A stretch of DNA of 23,224 nt from a virus. Taxonomy: Duplodnaviria > Heunggongvirae > Uroviricota > Caudoviricetes. This document shows, piece after piece, positions 3,001-19,785 of this stretch; the stretch's first letter is position 1; each line of letters starts with the position of its first letter. The position numbers and the translations under genes are program-made. The notes beneath the pieces were generated by a model that ran no database searches, had not been told where the DNA came from, and worked only from the letters and a program-made list of their open reading frames with translations. The DNA lies in IMG/VR virus record IMGVR_UViG_3300033068_001610, positions 64,001-87,224 of that record; one strand, written 5' to 3'.

Positions 3001-3367
3001 CAAAGACAAAGCAGCAAATAATTTTCACAGATTTTCCCTTAAAGTGATTGATAAATTTGTTGGAGAACTTTCCTTCTTTTACAATCCTGTAGAGATTGAA
3101 AAGATATTAAGTGGTAGTGCTTTCCCTGCATTAGGTTTATTTTCTGATGCTTCCAGGTTTACAAAACATTTAGCTTTACAAACAACAGGATTTGACTGGG
3201 GTAATACAGAACTTACACAAGAACAAGTAAGAAAAAAAGCACAACCTATTAAATATTTAGGAAAAATGCTTCCTATTACAAAATCATTTATTACTTATGG
3301 AGCTATTATGAGTGATGAATTTGCTAGAGAGTATGATGTAACAATTCAGAAAAATAATAATAGGTAA
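2..3367 (+). CDS. Giant phage protein, C-terminal part only (5' end outside window); putative virion cargo/internal ejection protein
   Basis: Frame is open from position 2 (GITIGSVDVNK...), so the TTG at 95 is internal. Helical and Lys/Glu-rich. The late segment RISRNATGSMTQTD...MMVFKGWIPKLVDTRFG resembles C-termini of large Crassvirales-type internal proteins (from memory). Confidence 0.55.
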   Translation, partial: GITIGSVDVNKIEDLKLVPVSEETESTGNEKLDKLIVQLNSVYRQVGKVVAATEEQKEFKRERLNILKEAIRAAQSSNNVEPLVTVIKVMSREGEQIINDWETLYSKKAASSDDVTNKELSDYADSIREYISIANIFVDVDKMLSDLIYTPEMEVGKKTKRELMELAERKKLAREINEEAKAIFSSKDTVKEIGNKFADKFMGQRNLVTGLLKPEAIWSSLSSMFRGAVDSPLKSILILTKLTDNARGRAVKDSTKEIDELMSIREKLAKRGGDFRELVQKIYQKDDKSKLVNKLIYKFKKEFYDAVQDNSLEGAQSKKWILENINVDEYKKEALDILTKKIARIKSIYQDNEEMMIDLITKERDKWDISRKTFNGWNNYIIKRHPKDIWLSDDYLELQKDNDLMDLYNFISKVNTKAADIGYIQNKIHSTFIPFVRKSLAESLAWDFSLSAVTQLGDNLSLRAGDIGYGSVNELTKEIEHSIPKYYTHDFSLQEDGKHDYSEVSEDIFKNMILYINHMHNYKYLSEVEGQVQLVKTIETFKNHLRTSFVGNIVMEGGKPQEEGGNEKNAKMFDEFMRAVFYEEKYPLSSGDTPINIDVTNFIKKAINKVAGKEVYTVDENPDAKSLIKTIDAANRAFQLKTLGFEFISGAVNWFGNNIQIATQSGNYFKAREILSNEGKLLGNKFKNDEEREMFIQLINTFLPLKDDPSYDAMKEAGMTELTKHNFADMLMWFMREPENHMQKTIFLTLLDNTMVVDGKLVNIREYVNNKYSDRYSSAQTYADASKNIEKEIEELKKTSSISAIKTLEDGKLVIPGFDLDNFNETNRLSTLAKRISRNATGSMTQTDINKMNMNVWTKSMMVFKGWIPKLVDTRFGEFRKISDDFSVQIDDDGLTTGEKYDIGRIRLFASFLHFNIIRTITEINDILSVNENGLVKLDELFLKYSEVYKKQTGEDLTMTKAEFADLIRNNLRNQVKELSVLFSLLGLMTSMGYFEPDDDKDKAANNFHRFSLKVIDKFVGELSFFYNPVEIEKILSGSAFPALGLFSDASRFTKHLALQTTGFDWGNTELTQEQVRKKAQPIKYLGKMLPITKSFITYGAIMSDEFAREYDVTIQKNNNR

Positions 3368-3371
3368 TATA

Positions 3372-3442
3372 GCTATATTATATCTTATAAAAAAGTGTAT
3401 AATTTTTAATTTGAAATATAAATATTAAATTTGTATATTAAT
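3372..3442 (+). promoter_or_regulatory. Putative promoter: GCTATATTATA-N5-TAAAAAA ... TAAATTTGTATATTAAT
   Basis: TAAATTTG (3426-3433) matches the Bacteroidota -7 consensus TAnnTTTG, 20 nt before the ATG at 3454. The same architecture recurs at 12163-12233. Confidence 0.6.
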
Positions 3443-3453
3443 AATCCCATGCT

Positions 3454-6400
3454 ATGAGTTTACATTGTGGTCCATCTTCTTGCTCCATTTTATTAAGTGC
3501 ACAATGTGTATTTTACGAGGGAGCAAATCTTATATATACAGGAATTAATACCAATGATTCTGTTCAAACAGCCATAGAAAAAATAGAGGCTGCTTTTAAT
3601 ATGGGATATGCTGGAAGTTCTGGTACATCAGGAACTAGTGGTGTAAATGGAAGTTCTGGTACATCAGGAACTAGTGGTGTAAATGGAAGTTCTGGTAGTG
3701 CAGGTACATCTGGTACAGATGGAACTACAGGAGTTTCTGGGTCTAGTGGTACTTCAGGAATAGATGGGGCAACAGGATTGTCAGGCACAAGTGGTTCTTC
3801 AGGAACTAGTGCAATTGATGGAACATCAGGATCATCTGGAACATCAGGTATTAATGGTAGTATGGGGTCTAGTGGTTCTGCAGGTTCTTCTGGAACTAGT
3901 GGAACATCTGCAATAGATGGTACATCTGGTACCACAGGAAGTTCAGGAACAAGTGGAATTGATGGTTCTACAGGATCTTCTGGCTCAGCAGGTTCTAGTG
4001 GTACAAGTGGAACGTCAGGTAGTACTGGAACATCTGGAAGTAGTGGAACCTCTGGTACATCAGCAACTGCTGGTACTTCAGGAACCACTGGAACTTCTGG
4101 TACGTCAGGTATTAGTGGATCTTCTGGAACCACAGGTACTAGTGGTACCACTGGTACAAGTGGAACAACAGGAACTAGTGGAACTTCTGGTATCAATGGA
4201 ACGTCTGGCTCTAGTGGAACCACTGGGACATCAGGAACCACTGGTACAAGTGGAACTTCTGGAATATCAGGGACAAGTGGCACAACAGGCACAAGTGGAA
4301 CCACAGGTACGTCTGGTACATCAGGGTTAACTGGTTCTTCAGGTACGTCTGGAACAACTGGTACTTCTGGAACTAGTGCTATAAATGGAACAGCAGGTAC
4401 TTCAGGTACTTCAGGGATAAATGGCACTTCTGGTACTAGTGGAACTACTGGCACCTCTGGGACTACAGGAACCAGTGGTAGCTCAGGAATAAATGGGACT
4501 AGTGGTACTACAGGTACGTCTGGTACATCAGGAAATAATGGTACTTCTGGAACAACAGGAACCTCTGGTATTAATGGTACCTCTGGAATAAATGGAACTA
4601 GTGGCACAACTGGTACTAGTGGTAGTTCAGGGACTACAGGAACATCAGGTACAACTGGTACGAGTGGTGTTTCAGGAACTTCTGGAACTACTGGAACTTC
4701 TGGGACTTCTGGAATTAGTGGTACGTCAGGCAGTAGTGGGACAACTGGTACTTCTGGTACTAGTGGATTAAATGGTACGTCAGGTATAAATGGTACATCA
4801 GGATCTTCTGGTACAACTGGTACTAGTGGAACATCTGGAAATAGTGGTACTTCTGGGGTGAGTGGTACTAGTGGAACAACAGGTACCAGTGGTACAACAG
4901 GAACTTCTGGAACATCTGGAATAAATGGAACATCTGGAACAACTGGTACTTCTGGTACATCTGGATTGAGTGGAACAAGTGGATTAACAGGAACTTCTGG
5001 TACTACTGGAACAAGTGGAACTACTGGTACATCAGGAACTTCTGGTTTAAATGGTACAAGTGGTATTAATGGAACTTCAGGTGTTAGTGGGACTAGTGGT
5101 TCAAGTGGGACTAGTGGTCTTACTGGTACATCTGGTGTGTCTGGAACTGCAGGTACATCAGGTACCTCAGGACTTAATGGTACATCTGGTTTATCAGGCA
5201 CAAGTGGTACAACTGGAACTTCTGGTACAAGTGGTACTAGTGGGGCTAATGGCACTAATGGTGTCAATGGCACTAATGGAACTACTGGTACTTCAGGTAG
5301 TAGTGGTGTTAGTGGAACCTCAGGCACAACAGGAACTAGTGGGACAAGTGGTAATACTGGGACTAGTGGAGTTAATGGTACATCAGGCACAACAGGCACT
5401 TCAGGTACTACAGGTACTAGTGGAACAAGAGGTACATCAGGAACTTCAGGAGTTAGTGGAACTTCAGGAATTAATGGAACTTCAGGTACTACAGGGACTT
5501 CAGGTACAAGTGGTGTTAGTGGTACTTCAGGGTTAACAGGTACATCAGGAACTAGTGGAACATCAGGTGTTAATGGTGGAACAGGTACTAGTGGAACAAG
5601 TGGTACAAGTGGAAATTCAGGAACAAGTGGAGTAAATGGTACTTCAGGAACCACAGGTACAAGTGGTACAAGTGGAGTTAATGGAGGTGCTGGTACTAGT
5701 GGTACATCAGGAACAAGTGGTGCAAATGGAACTTCAGGTACAACAGGCACAAGTGGTACTACAGGTACTTCTGGTACTAGAGGAACAAGTGGAACCAGTG
5801 GTTTAAATGGTACTTCTGGGGTAAATGGTACAAGTGGTGTAAGTGGGACAAGTGGTTCTAGTGGAACCTCTGGATTAAATGGCACCAGTGGTACAACTGG
5901 TACTTCTGGCACGTCAGGTACTAGAGGAACTAGTGGTATTAATGGTACATCAGGAGTGAGTGGAACTTCAGGGACTACTGGAACTTCTGGAACAAGTGGT
6001 GTGTCAGGTACATCTGGTGTTAATGGTACCAGTGGAGTAAATGGGGGTAATGGAACATCTGGTACTAGTGGTACATCAGGAGCTAATGGAGCTTCTGGAA
6101 CTTCTGGAACAAGTGGTACTTCAGGTACATCTGTAACTGTATCAGGAACAACTAACACTATAACTAAATTTACTTCTGCTACAACTATAGGCAATAGTTT
6201 GATTTATGATAATGGGACTTTCATAGGTATAGGAACAACAACTGATAATGGCAGTAAATTAAGAGTAGAAGGAGATACATATATTAGTGGAAAAGTTTCA
6301 TTAGGTCAAAGTACATACCATAAACCAGTCACTACTCAATGTGCAGGAGAAATAGTATATTATGGAACTGGTACAACAGTTGCTGGTAAATTATATTACT

Positions 6401-6717
6401 TAAGTACAGGTCTTGTATGGACATTAGCAGATTCAGATGCAGCAGCTTCTTCATCAGGAATGTTAGGTATTGCAATAGGAACAAACCCAGCTACAAATGG
6501 AATGTTAGTTAGAGGTTCTGCTAGATTTGATGCATTAACTCCTTATACAGCTATGACTGCTGGACAAATTCTTTATGTATCTACTACAGCAGGAGATTTT
6601 ACTGCAACTGCACCAACAGGAACAGGTAAAGTAGTTAGAGTAATAGGTTATTGTGTTGATGATACAAATAATACATTATATTTTTGTCCTGATAATACTT
6701 GGATAGAATTAACTTAA
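3454..6717 (+). CDS. Gly-Thr-Ser triplet-repeat fibre-like virion protein (1087 aa)
   Basis: Short Cys-containing N-terminus ([17 protein letters not shown]), ~843 aa G-X-X repeat, then a tail-fibre-like GIGTT segment and a C-terminal globular domain ([16 protein letters not shown]...GMLVRG...VRVIGYC). Confidence 0.75.
3604..6132 (+). repeat. Coding G-X-X triplet repeat, 281 triplets (9-nt period), synonymously diverged
   Basis: [15 protein letters not shown] triplets. Register is kept over 2529 nt, with only a few G-to-A substitutions (AID, ATA, AIN) and no Pro. Confidence 0.95.
3613..3696 (+). repeat. Exact 36-nt tandem duplication (2 copies plus 12 nt)
   Basis: ggaagttctggtacatcaggaactagtggtgtaaat at 3613-3648 and 3649-3684, followed by ggaagttctggt. 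Confidence 0.9.
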
Positions 6718-6726
6718 TAAAAAATA

Positions 6727-7662
6727 ATGGCAACAATACAAACAGCTACAACATCAGGTGTAATTAGAAATAGCGGAACCAACTACTTTGCAGTTCTTAG
6801 TGCTGCTACAGGTACATTTGTGCAAGTATATCCTACTTCTGGTTTAGTTGGACAAGCTCAGATAGGTTCTACTTTTTATGTAAATAGAGGACTTATGGCG
6901 TTTAATACTGTAGGTATTACTAGTGTGCCAGTCAGTGCAACATTTAACTTTTATATGGGGGCTGTCAACTATTCTTCATATAAAGTAGTAAAAGCTACTG
7001 CTCCAAATACTTCTATTAATTTAGCATTAGCAGATTATAACAATTATACTGCAACTAAGTATGTAACTAATAATTTTGTAGTAAATGGAACTGGATGGTA
7101 TTCATTACCGCTAAATGCAACAGCTTTATCTGATTTAGATTTATTAACTACATTTCAGATAGGGATTTTATCTGCTTTGGAAGGTACTGGACCAATTACA
7201 GAAGATTTTAGAGATAACTTATACTTTAACGGGTTCCCCCCATATATTGAATATACTTTAGCTAGTGGATTTCCTCATAAAGTGTTTAGTACACCTGTAG
7301 CAAATCAAAATAAAATAAATACTACTCTTTTTAATACTATAAAAAGAATAGACGGTGTACCTGTTGCCCCAACATCATACCCAGATTATTTTACTGATTC
7401 TTTTGATACTAGTTATACAACTGCTGGAAATGCGTGTGCTTCACCTTCATCTCCAGCAAATAGAACTATAAGATATATTAGTGGGTCTTATACTGCTGGA
7501 CAATATACTGTTGGTAGTACAGTTTATACAGATAGTAGTCTAACTACTACTTTTAATGGTGGTAATAATTGGTATGGAATTGGATTAGGAAGTGCTTATA
7601 TAAGTACTTATCAAATATCTACAAGCGGTGTTATACTTAATGTAGATAATTGTGGTTATTAA
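6727..7662 (+). CDS. Putative virion structural/fibre-associated beta-rich protein (311 aa)
   Basis: Rich in Thr/Ser/Gly/Tyr and follows the fibre gene by 9 nt. RGLMAFNT...SATFNFY is weakly reminiscent of DNRLRE-type jelly-roll domains. C-terminal module FNGGNNWY...ISTSGVI. Confidence 0.55.
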   Translation: MATIQTATTSGVIRNSGTNYFAVLSAATGTFVQVYPTSGLVGQAQIGSTFYVNRGLMAFNTVGITSVPVSATFNFYMGAVNYSSYKVVKATAPNTSINLALADYNNYTATKYVTNNFVVNGTGWYSLPLNATALSDLDLLTTFQIGILSALEGTGPITEDFRDNLYFNGFPPYIEYTLASGFPHKVFSTPVANQNKINTTLFNTIKRIDGVPVAPTSYPDYFTDSFDTSYTTAGNACASPSSPANRTIRYISGSYTAGQYTVGSTVYTDSSLTTTFNGGNNWYGIGLGSAYISTYQISTSGVILNVDNCGY

Positions 7663-7682
7663 AAATAAATAAATAAATAAAA

Positions 7683-7859
7683 ATGGAAAATTTAATTTCA
7701 GTATTAGTGATTGTAGCAGTTTTAGCTACTCTTGTAGTAATCTACAAAAGAAGAGAAATCTTTAAAAATAAAATAAATGGGAATGGAGAATATATAACTC
7801 CAGAAGATGTAAAAGAAGTTCCTAGTAAAGATTTAGAAGAACCTAAAGGAAGAGAATAA
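7683..7859 (+). CDS. Small single-pass membrane protein (58 aa), not in ORF track
   Basis: MENLISVLVIVAVLATLVVIYKRREIF...: ATG after an A-rich leader, hydrophobic helix followed by KRR. Confidence 0.65.
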   Translation: MENLISVLVIVAVLATLVVIYKRREIFKNKINGNGEYITPEDVKEVPSKDLEEPKGRE

Positions 7860-7874
7860 TAAATTTTATTTAAA

Positions 7875-8001
7875 ATGAATAGACAAGGGATTAGTTATTA
7901 GTACAGATGGTTCTAAATTATTTCTTTCAAATTATTCAGGAAGTTTTGTAAAAGGATTTAATTTAACCAAACCATTTCAAATCTATGCCAAGTTTGGTTA
8001 A
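7875..8001 (+). pseudogene. Frameshifted, truncated beta-propeller-blade remnant
   Basis: ATG 7875 (MNRQG) stops at 7899. Removing one base of the GGG run gives GLVISTDGSKLFLSNYSGSFVKGFNLTKPFQI, similar to G-x-x-F-x-x-DG-x-K propeller blades. Its TAA (7999-8001) overlaps the opposite-strand FkbM stop. Confidence 0.4.
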
Positions 8002-8657
8002 TGATTATCAATGTAGATAATTACTTCAGTATAATAATGCAGAAATGATTCATTCCACACATCCCATTTAATATCACAACCATCAAAAGAATGTATTTGA
8101 AAATTGGGAAATATTCTTAAATAAACATCCCTGAATACTCTGAATTTTTCTATAGCTTCTGGTGTACCAAGATGCCATTCTCCTGCTATATATTTAACAT
8201 TGGCTTTTATCCAGGTTAAGTTTTTTATAGTGAAAATATCATATTCTCCCCCCTCACAATCTGTCTTAAGGAAGTCAATTGTTTTGATGTTGTAATCTTC
8301 CACAACTTTCATAAAAGTGGTGGAATACATACTATCTTCTTCAACAAAAGGAGTATCAAAAATAAACTCTCCCACTACGTTGGAAATCCCTTTATTTATA
8401 GGGGTAACATTTCCATGTCTAGTATTAAGAACAAGTGTTTTAAATTCTTCAAAGCTGGGCTCAAATGCAAATACATTTGCAGGATTTTTATTTAGTATTG
8501 AATAAGTAAAGGGACCTAAACTAGCCCCTATATCAAATACTACATCTCCTTCTTTTACATCATGAAATTTAGTGTAAATTTTATCCACAAAAATTTCTTT
8601 TTCTATAGTTTCCCTGAATCCTGGGTAGCATTCAGGAGTCCATATAAATTTTTTCAT
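7998..8657 (-). CDS. FkbM family SAM-dependent methyltransferase
   Basis: VVFDIGASLGPF (motif I), VFAFEPS, IDFLKTDCEGGEYDI and GEWH are typical FkbM/Methyltransf_21 motifs. ATGA overlap with the upstream GT gene. Confidence 0.85.
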   Translation of the reverse strand: MKKFIWTPECYPGFRETIEKEIFVDKIYTKFHDVKEGDVVFDIGASLGPFTYSILNKNPANVFAFEPSFEEFKTLVLNTRHGNVTPINKGISNVVGEFIFDTPFVEEDSMYSTTFMKVVEDYNIKTIDFLKTDCEGGEYDIFTIKNLTWIKANVKYIAGEWHLGTPEAIEKFRVFRDVYLRIFPNFQIHSFDGCDIKWDVWNESFLHYYTEVIIYIDNH

Positions 8658-11600
8658 TTTATAATTTTATTAATCTCATTAATAACCATGGTAGATGTGA
8701 TGGCTTTTTGACATTCAAATTGCTTATCAGTTCCTTTGTTGATTGGGCACCAGTCCCAATCTCCTTTATCAAACTTGAAGTTTGGATTATTCCAACAGCT
8801 ATTACATACTGATTTTACTATTGGTCTATGACATTTAAATTCATGTTCTTCATTGGTAAAATTAGAAATCATAATCACTTCTTTACCTAAAGCCCAAGCT
8901 AGCCAAGTTAAACCTGAAGAAAGACCTATGAAAAATTCACTGTTGAAAATTTCATACATAGTGTTTTCCATAGACTTGTCCTGCAAAGACACACAATTTT
9001 CAAAAAGATTGTCTTCCAAAGAAGTATTAACAACAGTATATCCTTTTTTATAAAGATATGTAATAACCTCTTGCCAATTTTCTCTAGTCCAAAACTTACA
9101 CCCTGCAGTACTGTTAGTTGCTATGGTTACATACTTTTTAGTTGTACCCTGTCTTGTCTTTACAATAATAGAAGGTTTAATTTCTACATACTCGAGACCA
9201 AGGATATTGGTAGCAGTTTGCTGAAGAGGAATAGTGTTAGGCAGCACAGGCTCTTTATCAGAATTGTAAAACCAACCTATCTTATACATTGCATAAATAT
9301 TTTGAACTGTAGAGCCTGGATTGACAAATTCTACATCAGTGTATACCTCTTGAAAAAGAGAATTATGAAATGTAGATACAATTACTTTGCAGTTATGTTT
9401 AAGTCTAAATTCTTCTACATAAGGAATCCAGGCAATAGTATCTCCAAGAGACTTACTATCAAAAGAAATATACACTCTACTATTCAAATAGTCTAAGTTA
9501 TTAACATAAACTAATTTATCATCTTTGTGCACTTTAATAGTCCATTTAGTATAATATTCTCTATTACATCTCACCCAATGATTAACTGGTATTTTGTCTG
9601 AGTGTACAAGTGTCTCTCCATCCCAAAATTCAATTGTAAATAAACTTTTTGAATGTCCTGTAACTTCTACAAATGGTTGACCAACAAAATTACAATTAAT
9701 TTTATAAGAAGGAGAATTTTTTCTAAATTCTGGAATTTTATTTTTCATAATGGTTTTATATAGTTTAATGTGATTATTTGCAAAATCTTCTGAAGTATTA
9801 TCTTCAGGTATTTCATAAGGAATTTTTTGCATAATAGTTTTTAACTTATTACTTACAAGATGTAGTGGATCTAAACTATGTGTATACTTATCATAAATTC
9901 CACAATATTGAGGAAGTCTTCTTGCAAGTATTGGAAGACCATAACTTATAGCTTCCTTTAGAACAAGTGGATTACACTCCCAAGTAGAATTAAACATGAA
10001 TATATCTGCAGCTTGCATGAATAAATGTATATCTTTTCGTTCTCCCCACACTTTTACATTACTAGGAAGATTTTTCATTAAAGGTTCCCAATAGTCTTGA
10101 AAATTACCAGCTTGATTACCTATAAAATGAAACATCACTTTAGGATGGTTTCTTGCAATTTCAATACCTTCTGCTTGATTTTTACCAGGAGTCCATAAGC
10201 CAACATTAATGACTTGTTTAACATATGGTTCCATTCCTAGATATAATCTAGATTGTTCTTTCAATACATTAGATATTTCTTTTTTGTCTATAGGAAACTC
10301 AATAACTTTTTTATATCCTTCATTATTACCAAATGTATTTAAATGATAGGGAGTGCAGAAAGCATAAGCATCTGGAACATAAATTTTATCTTTTGGTTTA
10401 AAAGAAATATCATGACAAGTTTCCACTATACGATATGATCTGTTATCATCATATAATTTTTCTATCATATTGAGATTTAATCTTTCAGACATTTCGTCAA
10501 TATGAACAATATTAGGTTGAATATCATTAATAATATTAATCAACTCTTGCTTTTGTTGTAATGTATAAAAGTTTTTTTGTCCTATTAATTTGATTATTGC
10601 ATTTCTTTGAACTACAAAATCTAAACTAACACAATCATATTCTACTACAAAAATTTCACATTCTCCTGTAGCTAATAAAGCCTCTATTCTTTTGAGAAGA
10701 AATGCAGGCATTCCCCCTGTAGACAAATGTGGAGCTAGAAATAGTATTTTTATTTTATTTATTGGTTTTTGTTTATCAATTTCTCTCCTCATTTCTTGCA
10801 TTTTTGGATAAGATTTTTCTCCATGAAAAAATAGAATATTTTCTTTATTTCCTATTCTTAACCATGCTTTATCTTCTATAGGTTCTCCTTTGTAAATAGA
10901 TTTTACAAGCTCTATTCCTCCATTCACATATACATAAGGAAGCCCTTTTTGTATGTTATATTTCCAAAGAAGAACATTAAGAATTGTTTCTTCATTATAA
11001 GGAGCATAATAAGGAGTGTTATGTTTAACTTCAGGATGATTACACATCCATATCCATTCATTCAAGAAAGCAATATTCCATTTAGAAGCTACAAAATATC
11101 CAGATTGTCTATATCGCTGTCTTACAAATTGATTAACATTAAATAATTTACATGCTGGAGCTTCTAAACTTTTGTGATATTCTGTTTCATCCATAACACC
11201 ACCTCTGTCATTATATTGTAGCCAATCATACATCCCTTCTACGAAGTAAGGATGTGACACTTTGTCAGGAAGCATTTCAAATATTTGATCTGCATTATGT
11301 GTAGCTACAGAATCAGAGTCTATATAAGCAACTACATTAGCATATTTTAATAGACAATCTTTAATTATCTCAGGACGTTGAATAAGAATGTTATATGTAT
11401 CACTATTAAATCTATCTATATATTTGCTTTGTTTTTTATCAACAATATTACAAGGCCAATAAATAGTAGTGGCTCCTTCAATAGTGTTGTTAAAATTTAA
11501 TAGATAAACAAATATAGGAATATCACTTACTGCTCTGATGGAGTCTACACATCCTTTCACAGTTTTAAAATAAGATGCTGTTGCATATAAAACATATGCT

Positions 11601-12115
11601 TTTGGCACTTTTATATCTTTAGACATATAATAACCATACCATTCATTAGAATATAAACATTCTAAAGATGGATATCTCTCTAATACAATCTCATGTGTAA
11701 GATCTGGTTGGTGATGAGTCTCATGTATGTTTCCTTCATATTCTCCCTGTTCCATCATGTAAGGAACAGCTACTAAATATTCAATTCCTTTCTGTTGAAG
11801 TTTGTTTATAAATTTAGTAGCTTTATCAGTAGGAATGTGTTCAAGTACATCTCCTAAAATAATTAAATCATAATTATCTATATTAAAATCAAGAACATCT
11901 CCTAAATAAACATTGTCATATTTATCTCTAAGATTATATTGTTCAATATATGGTCTCCATATCTCTATAGCATCCATTCTATACCCAATATCATGGAGAA
12001 GATTATAGTAAGTTCCTTCTCCAGGGCCTACATCTAGTATCCTTTTTGTGTTTGGAATATTGTTTATAAAATATTCTCTAATTTCTTGTTTAAATACTGT
12101 ATAACTAGTTGGCAT
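8654..12115 (-). CDS. Four-domain protein: class I methyltransferase + GT-A-type glycosyltransferase + GT4 + BAHT (TibC/AAH-like) O-glycosyltransferase
   Basis: RILDVGPGEG (SAM binding); YIDSDS (DxD); ILFLAPHLSTGG and DIFMFNSTWECNPLVLKEAISYGLP (GT4); SKSLGDTIAWIPYVEEFRLKHNC and CNSCWN...DWDWCP...FECQKAIT (TibC-type four-Cys motif). Start placed at ATG 12115 because the TTG at 12136 lies inside a promoter motif. Confidence 0.85.
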   Translation of the reverse strand: MPTSYTVFKQEIREYFINNIPNTKRILDVGPGEGTYYNLLHDIGYRMDAIEIWRPYIEQYNLRDKYDNVYLGDVLDFNIDNYDLIILGDVLEHIPTDKATKFINKLQQKGIEYLVAVPYMMEQGEYEGNIHETHHQPDLTHEIVLERYPSLECLYSNEWYGYYMSKDIKVPKAYVLYATASYFKTVKGCVDSIRAVSDIPIFVYLLNFNNTIEGATTIYWPCNIVDKKQSKYIDRFNSDTYNILIQRPEIIKDCLLKYANVVAYIDSDSVATHNADQIFEMLPDKVSHPYFVEGMYDWLQYNDRGGVMDETEYHKSLEAPACKLFNVNQFVRQRYRQSGYFVASKWNIAFLNEWIWMCNHPEVKHNTPYYAPYNEETILNVLLWKYNIQKGLPYVYVNGGIELVKSIYKGEPIEDKAWLRIGNKENILFFHGEKSYPKMQEMRREIDKQKPINKIKILFLAPHLSTGGMPAFLLKRIEALLATGECEIFVVEYDCVSLDFVVQRNAIIKLIGQKNFYTLQQKQELINIINDIQPNIVHIDEMSERLNLNMIEKLYDDNRSYRIVETCHDISFKPKDKIYVPDAYAFCTPYHLNTFGNNEGYKKVIEFPIDKKEISNVLKEQSRLYLGMEPYVKQVINVGLWTPGKNQAEGIEIARNHPKVMFHFIGNQAGNFQDYWEPLMKNLPSNVKVWGERKDIHLFMQAADIFMFNSTWECNPLVLKEAISYGLPILARRLPQYCGIYDKYTHSLDPLHLVSNKLKTIMQKIPYEIPEDNTSEDFANNHIKLYKTIMKNKIPEFRKNSPSYKINCNFVGQPFVEVTGHSKSLFTIEFWDGETLVHSDKIPVNHWVRCNREYYTKWTIKVHKDDKLVYVNNLDYLNSRVYISFDSKSLGDTIAWIPYVEEFRLKHNCKVIVSTFHNSLFQEVYTDVEFVNPGSTVQNIYAMYKIGWFYNSDKEPVLPNTIPLQQTATNILGLEYVEIKPSIIVKTRQGTTKKYVTIATNSTAGCKFWTRENWQEVITYLYKKGYTVVNTSLEDNLFENCVSLQDKSMENTMYEIFNSEFFIGLSSGLTWLAWALGKEVIMISNFTNEEHEFKCHRPIVKSVCNSCWNNPNFKFDKGDWDWCPINKGTDKQFECQKAITSTMVINEINKIIK

Positions 12116-12130
12116 ATATTTAGTTTTAGA

Positions 12131-12141
12131 ATACAAATTTA
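12131..12141 (-). promoter_or_regulatory. Putative -7 promoter element TAAATTTGTAT for the GT/MT cassette
   Basis: Identical 11-mer to those at 3426 and 15042; TAAATTTG ends 18 nt upstream of ATG 12115. Confidence 0.55.
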
Positions 12142-12162
12142 TGAAAATTTTTTTTAATTAAC

Positions 12163-12233
12163 GCTATATTATAGTCACTAAAAAAATACAGCTATTGTTA
12201 TTAAAGGTTTTATTAATTACATTTGTTATTAAT
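12163..12233 (+). promoter_or_regulatory. Putative promoter for lysis cassette: GCTATATTATA-N5-TAAAAAA ... TACATTTGTTATTAAT
   Basis: TACATTTG at 12218-12225 with a TTG ending 20 nt upstream; same bipartite layout as 3372-3442. Confidence 0.6.
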
Positions 12234-12298
12234 TTTTAACCTATTAATAATATATCTGTTCATATATTAGATGATAAAAGAAATGTAAAACATTTACT

Positions 12299-12628
12299 AT
12301 GATGCCTGAAACTATCGAAAAACAGATTAAAGCAGAATTAAAAAGTATGGATCAGCGATTAGAAGATCTAGAGGGCAAAATGACCTCTATTGACACCAAA
12401 TTGACACAAGTAGTGGATGCAATTTTAGGAAATGCTTTAACGAAAGAGGGGGGTGTCATAGATGACATCAAGACTCTAAAAAATAAAATAAAGACATTAG
12501 AAGACAAATTAGCAGATCAAGAAGCATTTAAGAATAAAATACTTTGGACAATAGCTATTTTGGTAACTATTGGACTTATTATACAGTATATTTTAAGTAT
12601 ATATGTTTCTTTAAATAAAACAGCATGA
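12299..12628 (+). CDS. Coiled-coil protein with C-terminal TM helix (holin/XhlA-like candidate)
   Basis: Heptad-like helix followed by ILWTIAILVTIGLIIQYILSIYV; first gene of the lysis cluster. Confidence 0.55.
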   Translation: MMPETIEKQIKAELKSMDQRLEDLEGKMTSIDTKLTQVVDAILGNALTKEGGVIDDIKTLKNKIKTLEDKLADQEAFKNKILWTIAILVTIGLIIQYILSIYVSLNKTA

Positions 12629-13251
12629 TTTTTCCAAAAATATTATTATTTATAAAGAATAATTTCTTTAATTTATTAATAGCAGTTTTGGTATTGATAG
12701 TTTTATTACAAAGATGTGGAGGCCCTACTCCTACACCAGAGCTTCCTACAGTAAAAAAAGACACTGTATGGGTAGTAAAACAAAATATATACATAACAAA
12801 GCCAACTCTTGTACAAACTATTCCAGGAGAACCAGGAACTGATTTTATTCCAGATCCAAACTATTCTAAACTTGTATTACAATATCAATCTCTAGTTAAA
12901 GATTATATTGCCAAAAATATTCATAGAGATAGTATTAAAATAGATAGTATTGGGTATGTAAATATTGAAGATACTGTCAGTCATAACTTGATACAAGGAA
13001 GAAAAACTTCTTATAAATTTAAATATCCTGTTATAACAAATACAATAACACTTCCTCAAGAAAGGAAAAATCAATTGTATTTTGGGGGAGGATTAGAAAG
13101 TAATCCTATGGCAGGTAGTATGGAGTTTAATGTTGGTTTATTATTAAAAAATAAAAAAGACCAAATTTTTAATGTATATGGTGGAGTGGATACTAGAGGA
13201 GATTATCAAATAGGATTACAATCATATTGGAAAATTAAATTACACAAATAA
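12625..13251 (+). CDS. Membrane-anchored/lipoprotein, spanin-like candidate
   Basis: N-terminal hydrophobic stretch ending LLQRC-GG (possible lipobox), Pro-rich linker and C-terminal amphipathic beta strands; ATGA coupling with the previous gene. Confidence 0.5.
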   Translation: MIFPKILLFIKNNFFNLLIAVLVLIVLLQRCGGPTPTPELPTVKKDTVWVVKQNIYITKPTLVQTIPGEPGTDFIPDPNYSKLVLQYQSLVKDYIAKNIHRDSIKIDSIGYVNIEDTVSHNLIQGRKTSYKFKYPVITNTITLPQERKNQLYFGGGLESNPMAGSMEFNVGLLLKNKKDQIFNVYGGVDTRGDYQIGLQSYWKIKLHK

Positions 13252-15083: not shown

Positions 15084-16100
15084 ATGAGAGATTTAAAATT
15101 TCTAACAGTATGTCCAGATGATACTTATTATACTTGGCAAGTCAACCTTTGGTTGGAAAGTTTAAAAGATATTGGGCATTCAGATAAAGCAATTATTCTT
15201 GTTTTTATACCTAAAGGAAGAATAAAAAATACTAAATGGGAAGCTATAGTTAATCTATATCCAGAAGCTGAGTTTCAGTTTTATAATGATGAGGATGATT
15301 TAACTAGATTATTAGGAGTTTATATTCCTGTATTGCGTCCTTATACAGCATGGAGATATTTTAAAGATTTTCCTGAGAGAAAAGCAGATGCTATTTTTTA
15401 CTGTGATTCAGATATTTTATTTACAGAAGATTTTAATGTAGATAAATTTTTAGATGATGAAGTTTGTTATCTTTCTGATACTAACAGTTATATTAATGCT
15501 TCTTATTTTGATAGTAAAATCAACCAAGTTTTACCAGAAAAACTAGAAGAGTATAAAACTAGAGATATTCTTTCTGAAATTGCCAGCGTTATTGGTATTG
15601 ATAGACAGGTAGCTGAAGAAAATAATTTAAATTCAGGAGGTGCACAATATCTTCTTAAAAATTTAGATTCCTATTTTTGGAGTAAGGTGATGAATGATTG
15701 TCTTCTTATAAGAACCTACCTTCAGACAGTTAATAGGGAGTTTTTTAAAGATGAAAATTCTGGATTTCAAAGTTGGTGTGCTGATATGTGGGCTGTTCTT
15801 TGGAACCTTTGGTTAAGAAATCAGGAAACTAAAGTGGTACCTGAATTAAATTTCGCATGGGCAACAGACCCAATTGAAAAATTAGAAACAACAACAATAT
15901 TTCATAATGCTGGTATAGTTTCTGAGACAGGGAATGGTTATCCTGCTTTTTATAAAGGTAAATATATAGGAGGACAAGATCCTACAAAAGATCAATATCT
16001 AGATGTAATTCTAAATGATGAGATTTCTAAAACAAAATGTACTTGGTTTTATACTAACAAATTAAAACAATTAAGTCAAAAATATAAAATTAACTATTAA
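15084..16100 (+). CDS. GT-A fold glycosyltransferase resembling peptidyl-serine galactosyltransferase/hydroxyproline arabinosyltransferase (GT96/GT95-like)
   Basis: TYYTWQ, YIPVLRP, IFYCDSDILF (DxD), SGGAQY and SWCADMWA occur in the same order as plant SERGT1/HPAT motifs as I recall them (YFDWQ, YPAINKP, ILDADM, VGG, GWISEMYG). Confidence 0.6.
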   Translation: MRDLKFLTVCPDDTYYTWQVNLWLESLKDIGHSDKAIILVFIPKGRIKNTKWEAIVNLYPEAEFQFYNDEDDLTRLLGVYIPVLRPYTAWRYFKDFPERKADAIFYCDSDILFTEDFNVDKFLDDEVCYLSDTNSYINASYFDSKINQVLPEKLEEYKTRDILSEIASVIGIDRQVAEENNLNSGGAQYLLKNLDSYFWSKVMNDCLLIRTYLQTVNREFFKDENSGFQSWCADMWAVLWNLWLRNQETKVVPELNFAWATDPIEKLETTTIFHNAGIVSETGNGYPAFYKGKYIGGQDPTKDQYLDVILNDEISKTKCTWFYTNKLKQLSQKYKINY

Positions 16101-18037: not shown

Positions 18038-18553
18038 CTATTTCTTGATTCCCCAAAAGTAAAGATCTGTATCTCCACGTTCCAGGCTTAATGAACTCAT
18101 TTCAAAATATGAAATAGGAAGAACAGAATAGAAATCTTCTATTGAGATATTTCTATAATGATCTAATGTAAATTTACTATCTTGAGGAGTATGATTATTT
18201 GTACCATGCTCTTGTCTTTTGGGACCTGCACATGTAAGAATAAAAATTCCTCCTGGTTTTGTATTCTTGTACATCATGGAAAGAGCTTTGTCCCATTGCT
18301 CACAATGTTCTAACATTTCTGAAGATATTACTACATCATATTTATCTGGCATAGGAAAGTCATTTATTGAAATAACCATATCTACTCCAGGAGCTTCCCC
18401 TAGATCTATACCAAGGTAGTCACAATCTTTAAAATGTTTTCTTACTGAGCCATTAATATCCTGGCTTCCCACTTCTAATACAGTTTTATCTTCAAAATAA
18501 GAAGGAAACTGTTGTTTTACTTTTATTACAAAGCTGTCAATTTCTGGGTGCAT
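18038..18553 (-). CDS. Class I SAM-dependent methyltransferase
   Basis: VLEVGSQDINGS, YLGID...GVD, DVVISSEMLEHC, KPGGIFILT. Confidence 0.85.
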   Translation of the reverse strand: MHPEIDSFVIKVKQQFPSYFEDKTVLEVGSQDINGSVRKHFKDCDYLGIDLGEAPGVDMVISINDFPMPDKYDVVISSEMLEHCEQWDKALSMMYKNTKPGGIFILTCAGPKRQEHGTNNHTPQDSKFTLDHYRNISIEDFYSVLPISYFEMSSLSLERGDTDLYFWGIKK

Positions 18554-18554
18554 C

Positions 18555-19037
18555 TTAATTTATTTTTAATAGTTTAATTATTTTTCTAAACGTGTTAATA
18601 TCTTTACATTCTCCTCTAAATGTAGGTTCAGTATAATAGTTTTCTACTAATGAAGGATCTTTTATAATTAATGTAATTTTATTAGTATTGAAGTTCCAAC
18701 TTAACATGTAATTTCTATCTTCTCTAAAAAAAGTGTAAGTCATGTTTTCAGGAACAATGTCTCCTTTGTACTCAGTTACAAATGATGTCCATCCTTCAGC
18801 TTCTATTTGTTCTTTAGTGAGATAGGGTACTCTTATCTGATAAATTTCAAACATTCTTTTTAAATTATACCCTAAAAAAGCATCAGGATAAGTCATTTTT
18901 ACCCAAGTATCTTCTTCTGGTTGAGGCATAAAATGTATAAAATTTAGATCATATGGTTTGCCTTTTTGAAAAATCTCATATTGATATCCTATATGAAAAT
19001 CTTCTATATTTGGTGTAAAATATTTATTTTCTTCCAT
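18555..19037 (-). CDS. Hypothetical protein (160 aa)
   Basis: KYFTPNIEDFHIGYQYE N-terminus; operonic packing. Confidence 0.7.
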   Translation of the reverse strand: MEENKYFTPNIEDFHIGYQYEIFQKGKPYDLNFIHFMPQPEEDTWVKMTYPDAFLGYNLKRMFEIYQIRVPYLTKEQIEAEGWTSFVTEYKGDIVPENMTYTFFREDRNYMLSWNFNTNKITLIIKDPSLVENYYTEPTFRGECKDINTFRKIIKLLKIN

Positions 19038-19785
19038 CTATAAAGTTTTTTAATAATTGTACATAATCATGATTCCAATGAGGATTTAATTGTATTTCTC
19101 CTATTGGAATTTTTCCTTGTTTTCTAAGAAGTTCTATATGTAAAGAATGTCTTTCAATAACATTAGGTCTTCCTTCAATATCATGTCCCATTCCTGATTG
19201 ATGATAAAGATCTGCAGATGGCATAGCCCATCTATACATCCAACTAGCTTCTTCTTTAGGAGGACTAGCAAAAGTTCTTCCTCCATATTTAGCAAGACGT
19301 TCTATGAAAGTCATATCATACCCTGCATTTTCTATAGGATGATATCCAATAGCTTCCCAAGCTGCTTTTCTGAATACAATGCCAGAATTACCAATCCAAG
19401 TAATATCAGTAATATTAGGTTCATTATAAAATATACCATTTTGCCAATGGAGGATATTAGTTTCATCTGTAAAGTATTTAGCAACATTTTTTAAATGATT
19501 AGGTAAAGCAATATCGTCATCATCCCATTGACAAATAATATCACCTTGACAAACACTAGTGGCATAAGTTTCTTTATCCCCTATAGTTTTAAATGTTTGG
19601 TCAAAATTAATGATTGTAACTCTTGGGTCATCATATTTAAGCTTCTGTAAGGCATAATCATTAATAATGATGAGTTCACACCTATCTTTAGGATAATCTT
19701 GCCTGAGGAAGCTTTCAATAGTCTCCTCAAGCAAGTTTACTCTACCATAGGTTATACATTTACAACTTATGAATGGCAATTCCAT
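19024..19785 (-). CDS. GT2 family glycosyltransferase
   Basis: ISCKCITYGR..LLEETIESFLRQDY, LIIIND, ICQWDDDD. Confidence 0.85.
   Translation of the reverse strand: MELPFISCKCITYGRVNLLEETIESFLRQDYPKDRCELIIINDYALQKLKYDDPRVTIINFDQTFKTIGDKETYATSVCQGDIICQWDDDDIALPNHLKNVAKYFTDETNILHWQNGIFYNEPNITDITWIGNSGIVFRKAAWEAIGYHPIENAGYDMTFIERLAKYGGRTFASPPKEEASWMYRWAMPSADLYHQSGMGHDIEGRPNVIERHSLHIELLRKQGKIPIGEIQLNPHWNHDYVQLLKNFIDGRK

Follow-up and report, generated by a model that had tools for sequence, protein, structure and literature searches.

Analysis of a 23,224-nucleotide stretch of viral DNA (positions 64,001 to 87,224 of IMG/VR record IMGVR_UViG_3300033068_001610; hereafter the window) revealed a gene module that we read, with moderate confidence, as a phage-encoded protein O-glycosylation system whose substrate would be the neighbouring collagen-like fibre. 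The module comprises the fibre gene (P0001), a convergent gene for a four-domain enzyme (P0002) that ends in a BAHT (bacterial autotransporter heptosyltransferase) domain like those of TibC and Aah, and an FkbM-family methyltransferase gene (P0004); the fibre is probably sugar-coated. This reading draws on the identities of the domains, conserved catalytic and iron-finger residues, gene order, the recurrent co-occurrence of enzyme and repeat, and a split within the BAHT family. A literature search found no paper linking BAHT enzymes or TibC to phages or collagen-like proteins. The enzyme family, virion glycosylation and the glycosylated collagen-like protein BclA are all known; the combination and the substrate class are new.

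The original prediction for this DNA, made from its letters, had named a glycosyltransferase and a G-T-S repeat protein, and both genes lie where it put them: the fibre gene begins at 3454, and the first in-frame ATG of P0002, at 12115, coincides with the end that it had noted.

The BAHT domain and the collagen-like fibre

The C-terminal domain of P0002 scored 253 bits against TIGR04414 (254.1 bits in the genome search), above the curated equivalog cut-off of 200, and 306 of its residues aligned with TibC (PDB 4RAP; 6.7e-43). The original prediction had proposed exactly this profile search and a comparison with TibC, and both bore it out, the alignment to the crystal sequence keeping the catalytic Asp and the four iron-binding Cys. 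The two features on which it had relied, LGDTIAWIPYVEEF and the cysteines of CNSCW...WCP...FEC, were also found in the C-terminal part of P0002. Its TibC-like C-terminus was therefore real, although it had missed that the enzyme is a methyltransferase/GT-A/GT4/BAHT fusion with four catalytic-type domains.

In TibC, D110 is the catalytic base, T226 and K230 contact the beta-phosphate, W305 contacts heptose O4, and C339, C342, C358 and C370 form a four-Cys iron finger (PMC4358343). Mapping of conserved residues, with 28 and then 57 phage sequences, placed D899 of P0002 at D110 (the residue mutated in 4RB4) and T1010, K1014 and W1078 at T226, K230 and W305. The catalytic Asp was invariant in the 57 phage sequences and in the autotransporter clade (34/34), and was present in 17/18 bacterial collagen-linked sequences; the Lys and Trp were invariant among the phages and the Thr nearly so. 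All four TibC cysteines were aligned in P0002; across the phage alignment, three never vary and the fourth is nearly invariant. At position 300, the site that determines heptose stereoselectivity in TibC (PMC4358343), the P0002 domain has Ser, the same as in Aah. For the N-terminal barrel (TibC 1-97), the P0002 alignment with TibC begins at TibC residue 62 and that with the TIGR04414 model at position 41 of 374, and PF21129 (TibC_1st) was matched in the homologue of Microcystis phage Mel-JY01 only, at 5e-4. Judged by these alignments, the C-terminal domain of P0002 is a real BAHT relative and is probably active.

A search of 1.84 billion cluster representatives with the phage BAHT domain matched 1439 clusters at E <=1e-3 and 703 at <=1e-30. 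The best 150 matching clusters were mostly multidomain fusions of 312-2033 residues, some with tandem BAHT domains. In four cluster representatives (P0007, P0011, P0028 and P0098), the BAHT query matched three or four separate stretches, which suggests that these proteins carry tandem BAHT domains.

The proposed acceptor is encoded 1.9 kb from the enzyme gene, measured from stop to stop between the convergent genes. Residues 51-893 of P0001 keep a strict Gly-X-Y collagen register over 843 residues, with 277 triplets and four Gly-to-Ala slips, and match Pfam Collagen (PF01391) at 3.8e-115 (376 bits). About 840 residues of G-T-S repeats about 2 kb away had been predicted, in good agreement with these values; the repeats are real, and what had escaped notice was their strict collagen register. 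The X position is Thr in 68% of triplets and the Y position Ser in 66%, giving 446 Ser/Thr per chain, and the stalk contains no Pro and only 8 charged residues. The GC content is 0.45-0.46 over the collagen-like domain versus 0.29 in the flanks. PHROG tail-fibre families match P0001, mostly via the repeats, and its N-terminal 50 residues are 41-70% identical in about 25 syntenic relatives. Collagen triple helices rise 0.286 nm per residue and are usually aided by Pro or hydroxyproline or by charge pairs. As a triple helix, the stalk predicted from this sequence would be about 240 nm long, with up to about 1300 potential glycan sites per trimer.

The C-terminal knob, formed by the last ~130 residues of P0001, is beta-rich in the AlphaFold2 (AF2) model, with a predicted local distance difference test (pLDDT) score >85. 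VIA-align matched it to capsid accessory proteins of HFTV1, Pam3, Adjutor, FCWL1 and XM1 and to the base of phi29 gp8.5 (Z 9.5-8.0, root-mean-square deviation ~3 A, 110-118 residues), and nearly all of the top 28 matches were capsid accessory proteins; Foldseek matches were weak (E 0.03-0.2). A hidden Markov model (HMM) of the knob found no credible match among 3061 open reading frames (ORFs) of 160 loci; the knob is thus not conserved alongside the BAHT enzyme. The modelled knob is likely the trimerisation nucleus of the stalk; collagens zip from a C-terminal nucleus (PMC11923368). On the strength of its modelled fold, it may possibly also anchor the fibre to the capsid.

Recurrence of the pair and the BAHT family tree

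With the BAHT domain as query, IMG/VR yielded 126 relatives, from which 80 loci were kept, and the 45 loci of at least 15 kb were used for a forward count. An ORF was scored as positive when it contained at least 45 residues of Gly-X-Y with at least 60% Ser/Thr at X and Y and essentially no Pro. Such an ORF was present in 44/45 BAHT-centred loci versus 5/36 dUTPase-centred control loci (Fisher p 5e-16, with the qualification that the loci are not phylogenetically independent). The paired ORF almost always lay immediately downstream of the BAHT gene in convergent orientation, as in the window, and the single exception (L072) had an interrupted Gly-X-Y fibre. In the reverse direction, viral contigs chosen solely by a degenerate (GTS)4 DNA pattern, mostly fragments, carried BAHT in 14 of 28 cases versus 1 of 32 control contigs (p 4e-5). 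A locus-level reverse count (BAHT in 3/80 pattern loci) was uninformative because the sequences available for it were short and in many cases broke off within the fibre gene, and the whole-contig count was used instead. The pairing spans several synteny types: jumbo contigs of 137-321 kb, enzymes of ~1600 residues with another domain order, Mel-JY01 and the 735-kb megaphage LR756501. The proposed co-occurrence of BAHT-like and G-T-S repeat genes was thus borne out across many phage lineages and extended to bacterial chromosomes.

Mel-JY01 was the only cultured phage found in this analysis with the pair. In its record (L082, PP395634.1, 2-8430), a G-T-S collagen ORF of ~1000 residues is cut by the record start and only its last 178 codons are annotated, while the 1226-residue GT4...BAHT fusion is annotated solely as 'methyltransferase FkbM'.

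A scan of prokaryotes with one genome per species recovered >500 BAHT relatives. Relatives sharing 36-45% identity with the phage domain came from Arenicellales, Methylococcales, Acidiferrobacterales, Burkholderiales and other genomes and metagenome-assembled genomes (MAGs). They were mostly stand-alone genes of ~380 residues lying 0.1-1.5 kb from small proteins with Pro-free Gly-Ser/Thr triplets; at the Methylomicrobium lacus locus (L296), no such neighbours were seen. Relatives 30-36% identical (Burkholderia, Paraburkholderia, Selenomonadales and others) adjoined AIDA-type autotransporters and never collagen-like genes.

On one Arenicellales chromosome (L294:8525-12595), three small lipoproteins lie around a stand-alone 377-residue BAHT gene. 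They have a lipobox, GSS/GTS triplets and a poly-Asp tail, and a histidine kinase and a sigma-54-type response regulator adjoin these lipoproteins.

Maximum-likelihood analysis of 123 BAHT domains, with support from the Shimodaira-Hasegawa-like approximate likelihood ratio test (SH-aLRT), revealed that all 23 autotransporter-linked enzymes fell on one side of a branch with SH-aLRT 99.8, among them E. coli Aah, whose gene immediately precedes that of AIDA-I, and the enzyme of a second BAHT-autotransporter pair of E. coli. All 61 collagen-linked rows, from phages and bacteria, fell on the other side, and the neighbour label changed exactly once on the tree. In the window, no autotransporter and no AIDA repeat was found, and the neighbour of the BAHT gene is the collagen-like fibre. 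The TibC/AAH likeness originally proposed holds at the level of TIGR04414 and 4RAP, although it was not seen then that this BAHT lineage is separate from the autotransporter clade. Since the type of neighbour tracks the enzyme tree, we regard this as the most telling evidence that this lineage has the Gly-X-Y Ser/Thr repeat as its substrate class, and that the repeat is not just a frequent neighbour in hypervariable phage regions.

The same tree bears on a different explanation, in which the module remodels the host surface (lipopolysaccharide (LPS) core, O-antigen, capsule or a surface protein), for example to block superinfection, and the fibre is a mere neighbour in a hypervariable host-recognition region. 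GT9 enzymes are classically LPS heptosyltransferases, P0002 gave weak GT9 and heptosyltransferase I matches, and pelagimyophage glycosyltransferases clustered with tail-fibre genes have been read in this way (PMC7029224); more sugar genes also lie far from the fibre in the window (15084-16100, a GT2 gene at 19024-19785 and a methyltransferase gene at 18038-18553). However, the score on the protein-specific BAHT equivalog was 253 bits versus only 30 bits on LPS heptosyltransferase I, and P0002 retains the iron finger and apparently at least some of the N-terminal barrel, the elements that bind the protein substrate in TibC (PMC4358343). Moreover, the stand-alone bacterial relatives are flanked by small Gly-Ser/Thr-triplet proteins and not by LPS genes, and neighbour type follows enzyme phylogeny. 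Host-surface modification may apply to the GT4 and GT-A parts, but neither the BAHT domain nor the bacterial loci sit well with it, and it is quite unlikely as an account of the module.

Proposed pathway, donor sugar and contrary evidence

P0002 is ordered as a class-I S-adenosylmethionine (SAM) methyltransferase, a GT-A-fold glycosyltransferase-like domain, GT4 and BAHT. The methyltransferase domain matched PF13489 and PF08241 above their cut-offs and is optional: some relatives have it fused, others have it as a separate protein, and others lack it. GT4 matched PF00534 with 41.1 bits (gathering cut-off 26.4) over residues 640-746 and was fused to, adjacent to or preceding BAHT in 80/80 related viral loci. 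Residues 176-465 matched no Pfam family and no PDB sequence and were identified by fold alone: the AF2 model (pLDDT 88, from an alignment of 26 phage sequences) gave as best Foldseek matches GT6 alpha-1,3-Gal/GalNAc transferases and the UGGT catalytic domain, all retaining GT-A enzymes (E ~1e-7, template modelling score ~0.5, 12% identity), and the D-x-D motif (DSD) has invariant D104 and D106 in the domain alignment. P0004 matched TIGR01444 with 49.7 bits (cut-off 37.7) and Pfam Methyltransf_21, and an FkbM gene occurs in a subset of related loci only. FkbM-family enzymes include sugar O-methyltransferases. Across the 80 loci, the methyltransferase, GT-A and FkbM parts were variably present and GT4 was constant, as expected for variable elaboration of a glycan.

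In the glycosylation system that we propose, the BAHT domain would transfer the first sugar from a nucleotide sugar to Ser/Thr hydroxyls of the (Gly-Thr-Ser)n stalk. Priming would take place in the cytoplasm of the infected cell, probably before or during a trimerisation nucleated by the C-terminal knob. The GT4 and GT-A domains would then lengthen this sugar into a short glycan, which the fused SAM methyltransferase and the FkbM enzyme may O-methylate as a cap, an order of action suggested by the domain types. The phage might benefit through helix stabilisation, shielding or adhesion.

The identity of the donor could not be inferred from phage genes. No ADP-heptose gene was found in the 87-kb record, which has neither a cytidylyltransferase-like nor a SIS_2 gene, or in the 16 related phage genomes that are complete, which have no SIS_2 gene. 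Several MAGs (Sediminibacterium, Chitinophaga, Ignavibacteriaceae and Flavobacteriales) contain near-identical or related enzyme contigs, a weak hint at the host groups. MAGs with related contigs encode heptose-1-phosphate adenylyltransferase (rfaE domain II), which makes host ADP-heptose plausible as the donor, and the lost Arg-286 described below urges caution. E. coli makes ADP-heptose. Heptose would be only the default by homology for the sugar attached.

The only record with a GmhA-like SIS_2 gene was that of megaphage LR756504.1 (430122-430517; 457145-458236), in which this gene lies 27 kb from a stand-alone 389-residue BAHT gene that has no collagen gene within 15 kb.

Several observations weigh against the proposed system. 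TibC recognises a folded beta-helix and not a collagen chain. Its Arg-286 contacts adenine N1, providing ADP specificity, and R286A is inactive, while a beta-hairpin thumb (F265/V266) builds its dodecamer ring (PMC4358343). At the Arg-286 position, 52/57 phage sequences have Thr, including P0002 (T1059), whereas Arg occurs in 31/34 sequences of the autotransporter clade and in 10/18 of the bacterial collagen-linked ones. The thumb is missing (gapped columns) from 55/57 phage sequences and is present in the autotransporter clade and in 7-8/18 bacterial collagen-linked sequences. With Arg-286 lost and the thumb deleted, neither an ADP-heptose donor nor a TibC-like ring is to be assumed, which lends some support to the caution about ADP-heptose voiced in the original prediction. 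Among the 28 (GTS)4 contigs, 14, again mostly fragments, had an S/T-rich collagen-like fibre and no detectable BAHT. Conversely, BAHT phages without a nearby collagen gene were found (L053, L084 and the T4-like contig L285), and two close relatives carry another fibre beside the enzyme. In L007, whose BAHT is 64% identical and belongs to the same four-domain enzyme, a fibre of ~990 residues with 'STIGGGxxNTASG' YadA/beta-helix-like repeats (10241-13216, minus strand) replaces the collagen fibre, a repeat type closer to classical BAHT substrates; in L028, the neighbour is another S/T-rich fibre. Viral co-occurrence is also inflated by shared ancestry and by fibre and glycosyltransferase genes sharing hypervariable regions (PMC7029224). 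The support is computational throughout; the glycan, its O-methylation and the place of the fibre in the virion are inferred.

These exceptions would fit an enzyme that glycosylates a protein other than the stalk, either a virion protein (capsid, tail tube or P0003) or a host protein. BAHT is kept in relatives whose neighbouring fibre lacks a collagen stalk (L007, L028 and L053), in L285 it lies by the capsid gene region with no collagen gene within 10 kb, and known phage virion glycosylation affects the C-termini of capsid and tail-tube proteins (Freeman et al. 2023, PMC10527164, as cited in PMC12619734). Even so, the S/T-rich Gly-X-Y repeat is the only recurring neighbour of non-autotransporter BAHTs, in phages and bacteria alike, and P0003 has no counterpart in related loci. 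We therefore consider another protein target unlikely.

Beyond glycosylation of the fibre as such, a broader scenario can be put forward tentatively, and we are doubtful of it as a whole. A widespread BAHT lineage might have switched from beta-helical autotransporters to Pro-free (Gly-Thr/Ser-Ser/Thr)n chains, on which a dense, methyl-capped glycan would replace hydroxyproline in holding the triple helix. Phages would build ~240-nm sugar-coated collagen 'hairs', possibly anchored to the capsid via the cement-protein knob, and bacteria would apply the pair to small surface proteins, including some lipoproteins. The donor could be something other than ADP-heptose, because the adenine-binding Arg is lost.

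Gene layout in the window

The window is the final 23 kb of an 87-kb record with an estimated completeness of 75%. The source phage is uncultured and ~115 kb in size; complete relatives are 110-118 kb, and direct terminal repeats were present in four of those examined. The genes of the module form two convergent groups, with the fibre gene followed by a 311-residue gene on the plus strand and the enzyme gene followed by the FkbM gene on the minus strand (Table 1). Because the start of P0004 overlaps the stop of P0002, these two genes were assigned to one operon. P0002 has an alternative TTG start at 12136, and the version in one public record starts at 12115. A promoter and terminator scan of 3300-12400 gave counts not above those of shuffled sequence. 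P0003 showed a weak match to a PHROG of unidentified function, no Pfam match and no relative in the 80 related loci.

Table 1. Coordinates in the window of the proposed glycosylation module and its domains
Feature	Position	Strand	Basis
P0001, fibre gene, 1087 aa: Cys-rich N-terminal 50 aa, collagen-like stalk and C-terminal knob	3454..6717	+	ORF/translation; Pfam Collagen 3.8e-115
Collagen-like domain of P0001, aa 51-893, proposed glycan acceptor	3604..6132	+	Gly-X-Y register, composition
C-terminal knob of P0001, aa ~959-1087	6328..6714	+	AF2 model, structural matches
P0003, 311-aa S/T-rich protein, directly downstream of the fibre gene	6727..7662	+	no Pfam match
P0004, FkbM-family methyltransferase, 219 aa	7998..8657	-	TIGR01444, Pfam Methyltransf_21
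P0002, four-domain enzyme gene, 1160 aa	8654..12136	-	Pfam/NCBIfam and fold
BAHT (TibC/Aah-like) domain, aa 813-1160 of P0002	8657..9700	-	TIGR04414, TibC 4RAP alignment
GT4 (GT-B, Glycos_transf_1) domain, aa ~470-795 of P0002	9752..10729	-	PF00534
GT-A-fold glycosyltransferase-like domain, aa 176-465 of P0002	10742..11611	-	fold match, invariant DSD
Class-I SAM methyltransferase domain, N-terminal, aa ~8-115 of P0002	11792..12115	-	PF13489, PF08241

Phage genes inside the window include a dUTPase and an M15 endolysin. The presence of nucleotide-metabolism genes such as the dUTPase might suggest that the glycosyl- and methyltransferases hypermodify phage DNA with glycans, and DNA-glycosylating enzymes of the GT-B and GT-A types are widespread in phages (Pyle et al. 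2024, as cited in PMC12619734). However, action on DNA is not known for any BAHT-family enzyme, the P0002 gene has structural-type genes on either side and is outside the replication block, and its bacterial relatives stand beside small Gly-Ser/Thr-triplet proteins. A DNA target is highly improbable, and glycosylation of the collagen-like fibre is preferred.

Upstream of the fibre, a 1121-residue protein (window:2-3367, plus strand), open at the 5' end of the window, had no Pfam or PHROG match. Its language-model neighbours were viral clusters, partly with the LPD38/LPD39 and ART-PolyVal domains of 'polyvalent' phage proteins, and it is syntenic with the fibre in many relatives. Beyond the enzyme gene, a 338-residue protein (15084-16100, plus strand) belongs to phrog_4417, a function-unassigned family, and carries a DSD motif. 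Its identity is 58-76% in most syntenic relatives and 30-34% in a few, and it always lies a few kb beyond the BAHT gene; it is possibly a further glycosyltransferase of the same system, and no sequence similarity was found between it and the GT-A domain of P0002. A replication-side block on the minus strand, 6-7 kb from the BAHT gene, contains a SAM methyltransferase (18038-18553, phrog_32762) and a GT2 (19024-19785) that recurs in some relatives.

Comparison with known systems

To our knowledge, glycosylation of tailed-phage virions has so far been documented essentially only in mycobacteriophages, and we know of BAHT enzymes only as virulence-associated modifiers of autotransporter adhesins. 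If our reading is correct, aquatic phages ranging in size from 110 kb to the 735 kb of megaphages would have a second and far more widespread form of phage self-glycosylation, and the BAHT family would gain a second substrate class. Pro-free bacterial and viral collagens would gain a plausible stabilising chemistry, and the many glycosyltransferases of phage host-recognition regions, for which modification of host LPS is the usual interpretation, would have to be reconsidered.

The closest analogue for the expected appearance of the fibre is BclA, the exosporium glycoprotein of Bacillus anthracis, together with C. difficile BclA and its SgtA. BclA has a collagen-like Gly-X-Thr stalk and a C-terminal trimeric knob, and short O-glycans containing O-methylated sugars are attached to its Thr residues at multiple sites. 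It differs in its unrelated enzymes (no BAHT), its Pro-rich repeats (GPT) and its place as a bacterial spore surface protein. In Riftia cuticle collagen, sugar on Thr replaces hydroxyproline in stabilising the triple helix, and in Mimivirus, which has collagen-like proteins, virus-encoded enzymes glycosylate the surface fibrils; both involve other enzymes and hosts, with neither BAHT nor a tailed phage.

The knob of P0001 appears to have its fold in common with capsid decoration and cement proteins and the phi29 head fibre gp8.5 (PDB 8QSY, 8HDT, 8SAJ, 7KMX and 6QYY), and in gp8.5 such a base is likewise joined to a trimeric fibre. P0001 differs in carrying the knob at its C-terminus; among related phages, it is the N-terminal 50 residues, and not the knob, that are conserved.

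Mycobacteriophage glycosyltransferases likewise decorate the phages' own structural proteins. As summarised in PMC12619734 (citing Freeman et al. 2023, Cell Host Microbe, PMC10527164), enzymes of other glycosyltransferase families act there on the C-terminal tails of capsid and tail-tube subunits, and the modification was demonstrated by mass spectrometry, whereas the module described here is known from sequence.

The TibC-TibA and Aah-AIDA-I systems of E. coli (PMC4358343) share with P0002 a homologous catalytic domain, with 31-36% identity between that of P0002 and Aah-type enzymes encoded on plasmids. Common to both are the catalytic Asp, the beta-phosphate Thr and Lys, the sugar-contacting Trp, the four-Cys iron finger and an enzyme gene beside a long Ser/Thr-rich repeat protein that is the expected target of cytoplasmic hyperglycosylation. 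They differ in the neighbour, which is a Gly-X-Y collagen-like fibre for P0002 and an AIDA-type beta-helix autotransporter for TibC and Aah. P0002 is also encoded by a phage and falls outside the autotransporter clade, with Arg-286 replaced by Thr and the thumb deleted, and its BAHT domain is fused to GT4, GT-A and methyltransferase domains, whereas TibC and Aah stand alone.

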